NCBI GenBank assembly: GCA_964388035.1
Contig: CAYLZE010000059.1
Span: forward strand, 1 to 30,923
Origin: an uncultured archaeon
GTDB lineage: Archaea > Asgardarchaeota > Lokiarchaeia > Sigyniarchaeales > SOKP01
Length of the DNA: 30,923 bases
Direction of reading: 5' to 3'
The notes beneath the pieces are model-generated. The model was not told the DNA's origin, made no database searches, and saw only the letters and a program-made list of their open reading frames with translations. Below are positions 5,036-18,618 of the stretch, one piece after another; position 1 is the first letter of the stretch; each line of letters opens with the position of its first letter. The position numbers and the translations under genes were made by a program.

Positions 5036-6466
5036 ATGACTTATGATATAGAGAATAAAATCTCCGTGCATATTGGACTTTTCGGTCACATTGATTCTGG
5101 TAAGACAGCAGTAGCGGAAGTGCTTTCAGAGATTATTTCCACTGCAGGTATTGATGCTCATCCCCAAAGCAAGGAACGTGGAATTACTATTGATTTGGGC
5201 TTTACTAGTTTCATTGTAGGGGATTATCTCATCACTTTAGTGGATGGACCGGGGCATGCAGACTTGATAAAGATCAGTGCATCTTCGGTTGAAATTATTG
5301 ATTGTGCCTTGATTGTTATAGACATTAATAAGGGACCACAAATCCAAACCGGAGAACATCTTATCATGATTGAAGCCCTGAAAATAAGAAAAGTTATCAT
5401 TATTTTAAATAAAGTTGATTTATTTAAGGGTAATCTTAAAGAGGAAGAAAAGCGTATCAGGAATTTTTTTAAATCCACCTCATTTGGTGAAAATATCCCA
5501 ATTTATCCCGTATCGGCCAAGAAAAAAATAGGTTTTGAACAATTAAAGGAGGGAATTTATGATGTTATTAAAACTTTGAAAATAAATAGGGATGTGGAGG
5601 GAGATTTGGTGATTCCCGTGGATCATTATTTCAACATCAAGGGAATGGGAACCATTTTAACCGGAACGATATTAAGGGGGGAATTGAGGATTAATCAATC
5701 TATAGTGATCCTGCCTTTAAATATAGCCACTCGAGTTAAAAACATCCAAATTTTTCATCAAAATGTGGACAAAGCAAAAGCCGGAGATCGAGTGGGAGTT
5801 AATTTAAAAAGTGTGGATGTAAAAAAACTTTATAGAGGGTGTTATCTCACCTCTAACCCGGATGCATTTGAATTTTGCTCCGTAATTGAAGTTTCTATTG
5901 CAAAAAATTCATTATTCAAGCCTGAAATTCGATTTGGCAGTCAAATTCACTTGACCATAGGAATGCTTACTGTCGCGGGAAATATATATCCTTATGAAAT
6001 AAAAGATGAAAAACGGATGAAAAAAGATATAATCACTGAAGTTCAAAATTTTTCCGCCATTCTCTGGTTGCACGACAATGTCTTAATTAACAAGCAGAAA
6101 AGCACTTTCTTAATTAGCAGGCTAGATCTCCCTCCTACCACTCTCCGAATCATGGGAGCCGCAGAATTAAAACAAATTTTTCAAGAACCACCTCTATTTT
6201 ATCGTTATAAAATTAAAAAAGGGAAAATACTCAATCCTGACCATCCCCAGGGGATAGTATGTAGTGGATTAGCAAAGAGCGTGGAGGGGGCAAAGAAAAT
6301 AATAGGGAAGAAATTAGAACCTCCATTCACGAAAATCTTAGATTCATTCGGCACAAAAGGGCAAGTAATTGTAGGTATAGGAGATGTGAGCAAGAAAGTC
6401 AATAAAGGAGATCTTGTCGAACTTAAGGAATTATTTTATTTTCAATTAAAAAAATTTAAATCTTGA
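5036..6466 (+). CDS. selB: Selenocysteine-specific translation elongation factor SelB/eEFSec (archaeal-eukaryal type)
   Basis: G1 GHIDSGKT, switch I STAGIDAHPQSKERGITIDLGF, G3 DGPGH, G4 NKVD. Domain II 'DHYFNIKGMGTILTGT', domain III 'RLDLPPTTLRI', and a short domain IV ending 'SFGTKG'. 476 aa, with no bacterial winged-helix tail. Confidence 0.88.
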   Translation: MTYDIENKISVHIGLFGHIDSGKTAVAEVLSEIISTAGIDAHPQSKERGITIDLGFTSFIVGDYLITLVDGPGHADLIKISASSVEIIDCALIVIDINKGPQIQTGEHLIMIEALKIRKVIIILNKVDLFKGNLKEEEKRIRNFFKSTSFGENIPIYPVSAKKKIGFEQLKEGIYDVIKTLKINRDVEGDLVIPVDHYFNIKGMGTILTGTILRGELRINQSIVILPLNIATRVKNIQIFHQNVDKAKAGDRVGVNLKSVDVKKLYRGCYLTSNPDAFEFCSVIEVSIAKNSLFKPEIRFGSQIHLTIGMLTVAGNIYPYEIKDEKRMKKDIITEVQNFSAILWLHDNVLINKQKSTFLISRLDLPPTTLRIMGAAELKQIFQEPPLFYRYKIKKGKILNPDHPQGIVCSGLAKSVEGAKKIIGKKLEPPFTKILDSFGTKGQVIVGIGDVSKKVNKGDLVELKELFYFQLKKFKS

Positions 6467-10143: not shown

Positions 10144-10412
10144 TTTTTCTATAACCTTTTTTGAAATTATTGTGGATTTCTTTTTATTTAATTAAAAAAA
10201 AGCATGAATATTAATTCAATTAATCTTAAAATGATCCTAAATTAATACTTTTCTGAGATTATGAAGAAAAGTGAAATTAACTGATTCAATCAAAATCCTG
10301 CAAAAAATTATCTCTAATTTAATCCAAATTTTATCATTTAAAAAAGCTAATTGAATCTTAAATTATAATATTGTTAAATTCTTTCTAATCGACGTGTATA
10401 GAAAGAAAAGAA

Positions 10413-10627
10413 TGGTCCATCGGGGAATTTCAGTACATCCGTTATCCAGATCCTACATTTGAACCCCGGCTCTCGGGTTTGCCTCGATCCAGGACAAATT
10501 TTTTTCCATGTATGTCCGGTGTCTTATAAGACCCGCGCTTGTTGGCCAAGCGATTGCTTACCCGTTAACCATTTCAGATAAGGAATTACCTTTACAAGGT
10601 TTCCTTGATTGGCTGAGCTAATGGACC
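10413..10627 (-). tRNA. tRNA-Ile(UAU) with four introns: 10572-10610 (39 nt, D-loop 17/17a), 10541-10565 (25 nt, 21/22), 10480-10524 (45 nt, 37/38), 10427-10457 (31 nt, 59/60)
   Basis: Spliced by hand: GGTCCAT TA GCTC AGCCTGGTTA AAGC G CGGGT CT-TAT-AA ACCCG AGAGC CGGGG TTCAAAT CCCCG ATGGACC A (75 nt). Acceptor stem (7 bp), anticodon stem (5 bp) and T-stem (5 bp) are perfect. C4-G69 and A73 fit Ile. BHB central helices are TCAG/CTGA, TGGT/GCCA and TTCA/TGAA. The 37/38 helix is imperfect (CTTA/GAGG). Anticodon at 10526-10528. Confidence 0.85.
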
Positions 10628-10650
10628 TGAGGGCCAAGTTTTCTATTTAA

Positions 10651-10658
10651 TTTTAAAA
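10651..10658 (-). promoter_or_regulatory. Candidate TATA box for the tRNA-Ile gene
   Basis: TTTTAAAA lies 24-31 nt upstream of G1. The AT-rich background limits specificity. Confidence 0.35.
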
Positions 10659-10725
10659 GAGGCTAAACCTCAAAAATCTCTATTATAGTGTAAGGAAAGA
10701 AAAAAATAAAAGTTTTCTGAAATTT

Positions 10726-10878: not shown

Positions 10879-11328
10879 ATGGCTGAAATGTTAACGGATC
10901 TTTTGCAGAACATTTATAATCGCATTTCCCAGTTAGGAATGAGCATACAGAGTTTAAAGCAATCCTTAGACGAATTAAATAAGAATATAGAATCTCAAAT
11001 TACCAGTTTAACGGGTAAAATGGGAGAGTTCTCAAAAGAGATTGAAATAACTCAAACAAAACACGTAAATACCATGAAAGAGATAGGAGATAGCGTGACA
11101 ATGGAATTAAAAGAAATTGAACAAGATATCGGATTAGAAGCGTTTAAAGAATTAATTGGAAAATTAGAAGGGTTCTCCCAAATCGCGGAAGAGGTACTTA
11201 ATCAAGAGAATGTCAATTTATTATTATCTGAGGCTATTAATTCTGTAAAAGAAATGAAGGAAACTCTTAGACAAGGACCGATTCCCGTTAATGCAGAAAA
11301 AAAGGAGGAGAGCGAGCAGGATGGCTGA
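10879..11328 (+). CDS. Hypothetical coiled-coil protein A
   Basis: 149 aa, all-helical heptad pattern, acidic tail, GGAGGAG upstream of the ATG. Confidence 0.8.
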   Translation: MAEMLTDLLQNIYNRISQLGMSIQSLKQSLDELNKNIESQITSLTGKMGEFSKEIEITQTKHVNTMKEIGDSVTMELKEIEQDIGLEAFKELIGKLEGFSQIAEEVLNQENVNLLLSEAINSVKEMKETLRQGPIPVNAEKKEESEQDG

Positions 11329-11746
11329 AGCATTATTGGAAGAGATGATCAATAAGATTAATTTGATAACATCATCTCTTGATGGGACGATTGCTCAATT
11401 AAATAAGATGAATGATGCGATTAATTCCATGCGACAAAAGTTTAGTGAGGAAATTGTGAGTCTAACTGAAAATATAAGGCTGATTGTAGAAGTTTTAAAA
11501 CAATTCCGAGTACGTTCGAGTAAGGAAATGCAAGCAATTTCGGAAGAATTTAATTTAAAAATAAAGAATTTTTATGATAAAGAAGCGATTAAGAGGATTA
11601 CCAAGGAAGAGAAAGAAGCAATTGATTTTGTCAAACAAGCTTCAAGAACAATATCGAATAATCTGTATTACGTGCAATTATTATCTATTATTGGTTCGAT
11701 CCGAGAAGAAGTTAATAGGATTATGGGCTCTGTAGAGCAGACTTGA
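11321..11746 (+). CDS. Hypothetical coiled-coil protein B, probable paralogue of A (start moved to ATG 11321, MAEALL...)
   Basis: ATG 11321 overlaps the end of gene A (ATGgcTGA), follows GGAGGAG and gives the same MAE- start. 141 aa with a heptad pattern. Confidence 0.8.
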   Translation: MAEALLEEMINKINLITSSLDGTIAQLNKMNDAINSMRQKFSEEIVSLTENIRLIVEVLKQFRVRSSKEMQAISEEFNLKIKNFYDKEAIKRITKEEKEAIDFVKQASRTISNNLYYVQLLSIIGSIREEVNRIMGSVEQT

Positions 11747-18456: not shown

Positions 18457-18618
18457 GCAACGGTTGCGCAGCCTGGTAGCGTGTGATGATAAGCTTTTGC
18501 GCCAGAAACGCGCTGGCTTGGAGCTAAGCATTCTTGCTAAAAAGCCAGTGTCCATTTGGACTCGGGGGTTCGAATTTTTCTACCTATCGTAGGAAAAGAA
18601 TATATCCCTCCCGTTGCG
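18457..18618 (+). tRNA. tRNA-Ser(GGA) with three introns: 18479-18507 (29 nt, 21/22), 18524-18542 (19 nt, 37/38), 18574-18603 (30 nt, 58/59)
   Basis: Spliced: GCAACGG TT GCGC AGCCTGGTA ACGC G CTGGC TT-GGA-GA GCCAG TGTCCATTTGGACTC GGGGG TTCGAAT CCCTC CCGTTGC G (84 nt). Long variable arm GTCC/GGAC and G73 fit Ser. BHB helices are CTGG/CCAG, TTGG/CTAA and GTTC/GAAT. Anticodon at 18520-18522. Confidence 0.9.

Follow-up and report, generated by a model that had tools for sequence, protein, structure and literature searches.

We find that the minus strand of a 30,923-nt stretch of DNA (the window) very probably carries a functional, single-copy tRNA-Ile(UAU) gene of a Loki-type (Promethearchaeota) Asgard archaeon, which, judging from its sequence and those of its orthologs, is interrupted by four BHB introns, at 17/17a, 21/22, 37/38, and 59/60. 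The gene spans positions 10627 to 10413 (215 nt), is bounded by GGTCCAT and ATGGACC, the latter followed by the discriminator A, and overlaps no open reading frame of at least 50 amino acids. When the four inserts, which are 39, 25, 45, and 31 nt long, are excised, a 75-nt cloverleaf remains, and ARAGORN identifies it as tRNA-Ile with anticodon TAT. The original prediction for this locus had proposed the same layout, and its exon and insert lengths, its coordinates, and its 6-nt exon at 10571-10566 were reproduced exactly. The identification draws on this layout, the ARAGORN call, the BHB geometry of the junctions, a spliced alignment of orthologs, and covariation.

The mature product is assembled from five exons of 17, 6, 16, 22, and 14 nt, all on the minus strand. 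Exon 1 (10611-10627) contains the 5' strand of the acceptor stem, U8, A9, the 5' strand of the D-stem, and the D-loop as far as position 17. Intron 1 (39 nt; 10572-10610), at 17/17a, is recognized both by its BHB motif and by its presence or absence in orthologs. It is followed by exon 2 (10566-10571), the hexamer TGGTTA, which provides D-loop positions 17a to 21, including G18 and G19, and by intron 2 (25 nt; 10541-10565), assigned by its BHB motif at 21/22. Exon 3 (10525-10540) holds the 3' strand of the D-stem, G26, the 5' strand of the anticodon stem, and C32 to A37 with the UAU anticodon, and it ends at intron 3 (45 nt; 10480-10524), which lies at the canonical 37/38 site in a relaxed BHB. 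Exon 4 (10458-10479) runs from A38 through the 3' strand of the anticodon stem, the variable loop, and the 5' strand of the T-stem to T-loop positions 54 to 59. Intron 4 (31 nt; 10427-10457), at 59/60, has a strict hBHBh' motif, and exon 5 (10413-10426) supplies U60, the 3' strands of the T-stem and acceptor stem, and the discriminator A73.

In the spliced 75-mer, the acceptor stem is 7 bp long, the D-loop includes G18 and G19, the anticodon and variable loops have 7 and 5 nt, respectively, and the T-loop reads TTCAAAT. Nucleotides conserved among tRNAs are present in the joined exons (U8, A14, G18, G19, U33, and the T-loop TTCRA). The exons are 56% G+C, compared with ~29% in the surrounding region, and the cloverleaf lies 2.8 kcal/mol above the computed energy minimum of the spliced RNA.

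Splice motifs and the D-loop introns

We assessed the junctions by the published BHB definition, in which the four exon bases 5' of the first bulge pair with the four intron bases 5' of the second bulge, and cleavage occurs after the second base of each 3-nt bulge. Three of the window junctions are strict BHBs (introns 1, 2, and 4) and one is relaxed (intron 3). For intron 1, all four pairs of the central helix form (TCAG/CTGA) between bulges CC-A and AA-T, the hyphen marking the cut; the outer helix has 1 bp, and the inner helix has 2 bp and can be extended beyond a 1-nt bulge. Intron 2 likewise has four of four central pairs (TGGT/GCCA), with bulges TA-A and AC-A, no outer helix, and an inner helix of 5 bp. 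In intron 3, three of four central pairs form (CTTA/GAGG), with bulges TA-A and CA-A, an inner helix of 2 bp, and the 5-bp anticodon stem as outer helix; its cut can be shifted by one base either way within a run of A, leaving the product unchanged. Intron 4 has four of four central pairs (TTCA/TGAA), bulges AA-T and AT-T, the 5-bp T-stem as outer helix, and an inner helix of 3 bp. The three fully paired helices, their 3-nt bulges, and the cut after the second bulge base had all been described in the original prediction, and all are present.

The same motif recurs across the family. Among 88 inserts in orthologous genes, 50 (57%) have a canonical BHB and another 26 a relaxed one; in an intron-shuffled null only 2% are canonical, an enrichment of ~29-fold. 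The 21/22 site is particularly regular, with 22 of 25 introns canonical. The intron strand of the central helix varies among orthologs for both intron 1 (CTGA, CTGG, or TTGA) and intron 2 (GCCA, GTCA, or ACCG), with the pairs kept, and in intron 4 of one four-intron ortholog (G007) an exon change of A57 to G is matched by a change in the intron, giving TTCG/CGAA. In the minimum-energy fold of the full precursor, which is more stable than shuffled sequences (z = -4.6), the acceptor and T stems form and none of the four central helices is present. We count the missing helices as neutral because 4-bp helices between bulges are rarely favored by nearest-neighbor energies.

A cut-and-join mechanism does not easily accommodate a 6-nt exon, and the outer helices of the D-loop introns amount to a single base pair for intron 1 and none for intron 2. 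Such features would fit a real tRNA gene in which not every insert is a separate intron: the two D-loop inserts could leave together with TGGTTA as one 70-nt intron, or one of the inserts could be kept as an enlarged loop. We consider this improbable. In orthologs lacking D-loop introns, TGGTTA (or TGGTCA), with its G18 and G19, is contiguous with its neighbors; TGGTTA is therefore an exon, and the D-loop inserts are two separate introns. It also remains an exon in orthologs that have intron 2 alone, and it is invariant among those with four introns. Each D-loop insert has its own fully paired central helix, and the corresponding cuts give exactly the join seen in orthologs, whereas G18 and G19 would be lost from the D-loop if all 70 nt were removed. 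The original prediction had itself raised the case of both D-loop inserts leaving as one, and this case ran against the orthologs.

If the D-loop introns are indeed separate, their removal would probably be stepwise, since simultaneous cuts would free the 6-mer and since both motifs use T17a, which is bulged in one and paired in the other.

Orthologs and intron number across the family

A DNA search of 40 related genomes recovered the locus in 8. A 16-nt anticodon-arm pattern was found in 111 of the 126 other genomes of the family, once in each except for three genomes where it occurred twice, and the reversed pattern, used as a control, did not occur at all. We aligned 30 further loci in spliced form, which together with the first set gave ~30 distinct precursors; one locus (L063), which had been misparsed with a spurious 82-nt insert and duplicated L059, was removed. 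Exons are conserved and introns diverged throughout this set.

The distinct precursors form a graded series, with one intron in 1, two in 9, three in 14, and four in 6. The single-intron gene (G012) is interrupted at 37/38. Two-intron genes include those of G014, G015, and G021, all with introns at 21/22 and 37/38, and a three-intron gene (G003) adds 59/60 to these two. Four introns at the same sites as in the window, with diverged intron sequences, occur in a genome of the same genus (G001) and in G007 and G013. The ortholog of G147 also has four introns, and that of G098 has a different four, at 21/22, 37/38, and 45/46 and in the T-loop. Taken over the whole family, introns occupy 17/17a, 21/22, 37/38, ~42/43, 45/46, 48/49, and several positions in the T-loop. 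The 37/38 intron is present in every ortholog examined, and the 17/17a intron is found in genera g1, g6, g7, g11, and g13 and is missing in other genera.

The exon joins are identical among orthologs with one, two, three, and four introns. The original prediction had proposed a comparison of orthologous loci, and in this comparison inserts come and go at shared sites; relatives with one, two, three, or four inserts and conserved exons thus bear out its reading of the locus as a four-intron tRNA gene. BLAST searches with the four window introns against the whole source genome returned self matches alone and thus gave no sign of intron copying. A series of one to four introns in one gene of one family is a natural data set for intron gain and loss, and it shows how exon sequence constrains the placement of BHB introns.

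In an alignment of 23 distinct mature sequences, all pairs of the acceptor and anticodon stems are standard, as are all T-stem cells but one. Compensatory double changes were seen at 2:71, 3:70, 5:68, 6:67, 7:66, 28:42, 49:65, and 50:64, for example G-C to C-G at 2:71, U-A, G-C, and A-U at 3:70, and G-C to A-U at 28:42. Just one mismatch recurs, C13.A22 in the D-stem, which is conserved in the genus of the window; 9 of the 23 sequences have U13-A22 instead. Because the covarying pairs span introns, selection acts on the spliced product.

These patterns bear on whether the locus might be a decaying pseudogene or a tRNA-derived relic that looks like a tRNA only after generous hand-editing. Four free deletions do give much freedom, standard tRNA finders return nothing here (see below), and a tRNA-Ile(TAT) of Atabeyarchaeia-2 is flagged as "possible pseudo" in a published table. 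Even so, we hold this explanation to be very unlikely, given a single-copy gene conserved in 111 of 126 family genomes, stems that covary with essentially no broken pairs, conserved synteny, and canonical BHBs at ~29 times the null rate. AUA codons are also common, and neither TiaS nor another AUA decoder was found. The synteny consists of a neighboring tRNA-Ser gene, which lies ~8 kb from the tRNA-Ile(UAU) gene in several genera.

Synteny also speaks to the provenance of the contig. The source assembly is a draft of 211 contigs with an estimated contamination of 7.3%, which leaves some room for an assembly or binning artifact, that is, a chimeric contig or a contaminant. We give this almost no credence: the same four-intron architecture and the same neighbors are found on contig C3 of G001, an independent genome from this genus, and the gene order relative to tRNA-Ser is repeated in other genera. 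The window proteins, moreover, match Promethearchaeota MAGs, the closest being MAGs with that name in their titles, including Loki_b32.

Detection, expression, and processing

The gene is hidden from the tools that we applied to the unspliced DNA. ARAGORN found no tRNA in the whole unspliced window, nor, with introns allowed, on a 351-nt segment containing the locus, and Rfam reported no tRNA at the locus either at the gathering threshold or at E values up to 5. The Rfam tRNA model matches the one-intron ortholog L008 over the full model (52.3 bits, threshold 29), whose exons are identical to those of the window at 66 of 75 positions, and it leaves the two-, three-, and four-intron orthologs undetected. 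The suspicion that standard annotation could miss this gene, voiced in the original prediction, was therefore justified, with ARAGORN and Rfam both blank. The tRNA is probably essential, as AUA makes up ~3% of window-ORF codons, and automated annotation would show no AUA decoder at all.

The source genome as a whole seems to follow the same pattern. It is 96.7% complete, and ARAGORN finds 22 tRNA genes in it and Rfam finds 19; a crude structural census based on the acceptor stem and T-arm yields 41 credible candidates. Only ~5 of these 41 are of uninterrupted length; ~36 exceed 95 nt, and an insert of ~30 nt is present in the T-loop of 19, so that, by this crude measure, most tRNA genes of the genome seem to be interrupted. 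At 215 nt, the tRNA-Ile(UAU) gene is the longest among the census candidates; a 242-nt candidate on contig C158 was a false positive.

The neighboring tRNA-Ser(GGA) gene is a second hidden tRNA gene, undetected by ARAGORN and Rfam in the window. It lies on the plus strand at 18457-18618 (162 nt) and gives an 84-nt mature product whose variable arm is long and whose discriminator is G73. Its three BHB introns each have four of four central pairs and are located at 21/22 (18479-18507; CTGG/CCAG), 37/38 (18524-18542; TTGG/CTAA), and 58/59 (18574-18603; GTTC/GAAT). Some orthologs are without one or two of these introns, and that of G012 has the T-loop intron only. In one relative (L068, G006:C188), the full tRNA-Ser gene is preceded, ~40 nt upstream, by an incomplete second copy of its 5' end (GCAACGGTAGCGC...).

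Two other features of the window deserve mention. A gene for an archaeal SelB-like elongation factor, with GTP_EFTU and aSelB_III domains, is encoded at 5036-6466 on the plus strand, and this protein is present in two copies in relatives. The tRNA-Sec gene is located close to EFsec in Lokiarchaeota contigs from the literature (PMC4989117); Rfam, at the gathering threshold or at E values up to 5, found no tRNA-Sec in the window, including the vicinity of the SelB-like gene. We also considered whether the open reading frames at 10879-11328 and 11291-11746 were a gene split by an intron, and rejected this; the two frames proved to be neighboring genes that overlap in an ATG..TGA arrangement.

Expression of the tRNA-Ile(UAU) gene may start from a candidate promoter, a BRE/TATA-like element (AACTTTTATTTTTT) at 10701-10714 on the minus strand, 87 nt upstream of the mature 5' end. 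An alternative A/T-rich box lies nearer, at ~10644-10658. Of 28 orthologous loci, 13 have a similar A/T-rich motif, with a consensus of approximately AAAWTTTTTATKTTTT, at a distance of 35 to 126 nt upstream of the gene; it may represent a promoter, in which case the 5' leaders would differ in length among loci. Immediately downstream of the promoter-like motif, the window and G001 have a CTTTCCTTACACTA block in common. A T-rich tract directly after the discriminator (10401-10412, minus strand) is a likely transcription stop, and T-rich tracts also occur 3' of the gene in orthologs.

The source genome encodes a plausible processing machinery, consisting of two EndA paralogs (on contigs C146 and C33) and an RtcB ligase. 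The first EndA (202 aa) is closest to the catalytic alpha subunit of the heterotetramer from Aeropyrum pernix (3p1z_B, E value of 1e-35) and keeps the active-site Tyr, His, and Lys; it also has a loop in which a Lys is aligned to A. pernix K44, a residue in the Crenarchaea-specific loop that is reported to be essential for broad substrate specificity (PMC3488258). The second (200 aa) has Ser at the His position and, by sequence, looks like a structural beta subunit. Two EndA paralogs have been reported in most Asgard genomes, and the predicted two-subunit set matches the (alpha-beta)2 arrangement reported for them.

From these elements we propose the following course of maturation. The 215-nt region would be transcribed from an A/T-rich promoter with a leader and a T-rich trailer, with termination presumably at the T-rich tract past the discriminator. 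An (alpha-beta)2 endonuclease could then cut each BHB after the second bulge base, at eight sites in all, and RtcB would join the exons. Trimming of the ends would be followed by addition of CCA, a step that we propose because CCA is not encoded in the gene.

AUA decoding and comparison with known systems

The ATA codon is well used in the window, accounting for 29 per 1,000 codons and 30% of Ile codons in its open reading frames. The anticodon loop CTTATAA is invariant in all orthologs, and U33, A37, and the discriminator A73 are present; the features that identify the tRNA as isoleucine specific are limited to the anticodon and A73. Going by these sequence features, the 75-nt product is most likely a decoder of AUA. 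No other candidate for this role emerged, as ARAGORN and Rfam detected no Ile tRNA anywhere in the source genome.

The usual archaeal route to AUA decoding, agmatidine on a CAU anticodon, also appears to be missing. The TiaS_FLD domain (PF08489) had no match in the source genome (96.7% complete) or in 40 relatives of the same order, a result that for draft genomes means "not found." The same search gave matches in all four archaeal control genomes; across the phylum, 84 of 151 genomes had a match, and the families in which it gave none are f1, f2, f8, f17, f18, f21, and f25. Since the search for TiaS, the agmatidine enzyme, found none here, tRNA-Ile(UAU) is probably the only AUA decoder of this lineage. 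The family-level gaps in TiaS suggest that tRNA-Ile(UAU) has replaced the CAU/agmatidine system in particular lineages. A limited literature search, which is no proof of novelty, found no published link of TiaS loss to Asgard archaea.

It is possible that this replacement extends further still. In the broadest form of the proposal, the four-intron gene would be the sole AUA decoder of the whole TiaS-less Loki-type class, which would read AUA in the eukaryotic way, through a tRNA-Ile(UAU) with a constant anticodon-loop intron, instead of through agmatidine on CAU; we regard the prospects of this proposal as evenly balanced. In yeast, the intron of tRNA-Ile(UAU) is needed for modification of the anticodon. 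By analogy, and more speculatively, the universal 37/38 intron of the family may have been kept because it is needed for anticodon modification here as well. The combination of tRNA-Ile(UAU) with a missing TiaS hints at a eukaryote-like, testable decoding trait in Asgard archaea.

The gene can be set beside three groups of known systems. The first comprises other tRNAs with this anticodon. Eukaryotic tRNA-Ile(UAU) genes have an anticodon-loop intron, and one is likewise present here. The Korarchaeum gene has one too (PMC6000648). A 2018 survey of 167 archaeal genomes recorded tRNA-Ile with a UAU anticodon in no genera other than Korarchaeum and Nanoarchaeum (PMC6000648). The species concerned, Korarchaeum cryptofilum and Nanoarchaeum equitans, use a UAU anticodon for AUA, as seems to be the case here, instead of an agmatidine-modified CAU. 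The same holds for the eukaryotic cytosol. The difference lies in the number of introns, with zero or one in the Korarchaeum, Nanoarchaeum, and eukaryotic genes and four in the window gene.

The second group comprises the multi-intron tRNA genes of Thermoproteales. To our knowledge, the maximum in this order is three introns per tRNA gene. Both the window gene and the genes of Pyrobaculum, Thermofilum, and Caldivirga have protein-spliced BHB introns at noncanonical positions (Sugahara et al. 2008). The Thermoproteales endonuclease is an (alpha-beta)2 enzyme with a specificity loop, as predicted here. Thermoproteales, however, are thermophiles of a different phylum, and related introns recur between their genes, whereas the window introns have no paralog in the genome.

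The third and closest group is found within the Asgard archaea themselves. In Atabeyarchaeia and Freyarchaeia, 92 to 95% of tRNA genes are interrupted (Valentin-Alvarado et al. 2024, PMC11291895), and Supplementary Data 4 of that study includes four-intron genes for Arg-TCT, Ile2-CAT, Lys-TTT, Trp-CCA, and Leu-GAG. Up to five intervening sequences per tRNA gene have been described in a recent preprint, in which tRNAscan-SE misses 30% of intervening sequences, mostly in the D-arm (Goswami et al. 2026, 10.64898/2026.10.13.758758). The original prediction had placed four introns at or beyond the usual range; this stands against the three of Thermoproteales but not for Asgard archaea, where four (PMC11291895) and even five (2026 preprint) are known. 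The published Asgard genes and the window gene share short BHB-type introns, several per gene, at canonical and noncanonical sites, among which D-arm and T-arm sites are common, and many of the published genes, like the window gene, are missed by standard annotators.

Two differences set the window gene apart from the published Asgard set. First, it belongs to a Loki-type (Promethearchaeota) family, whereas the published genes come from Atabeyarchaeia and Freyarchaeia, and in the preprint, whose text does not name Lokiarchaeia, the heavily interrupted classes are two others (10.64898/2026.10.13.758758). Second, tRNA-Ile(UAU) appears in the published table just once, as the "possible pseudo" gene of Atabeyarchaeia-2, which has two introns (PMC11291895), in contrast to the four described here. 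For this gene, a series of one to four introns within one family is shown here. Taken together, equally crowded tRNA genes are already known from other Asgard lineages, and the window gene is a good example of them rather than a new kind; heavy interruption of tRNA genes thus seems to reach a Loki-type family as well, in addition to the Asgard classes on which the literature has focused so far.
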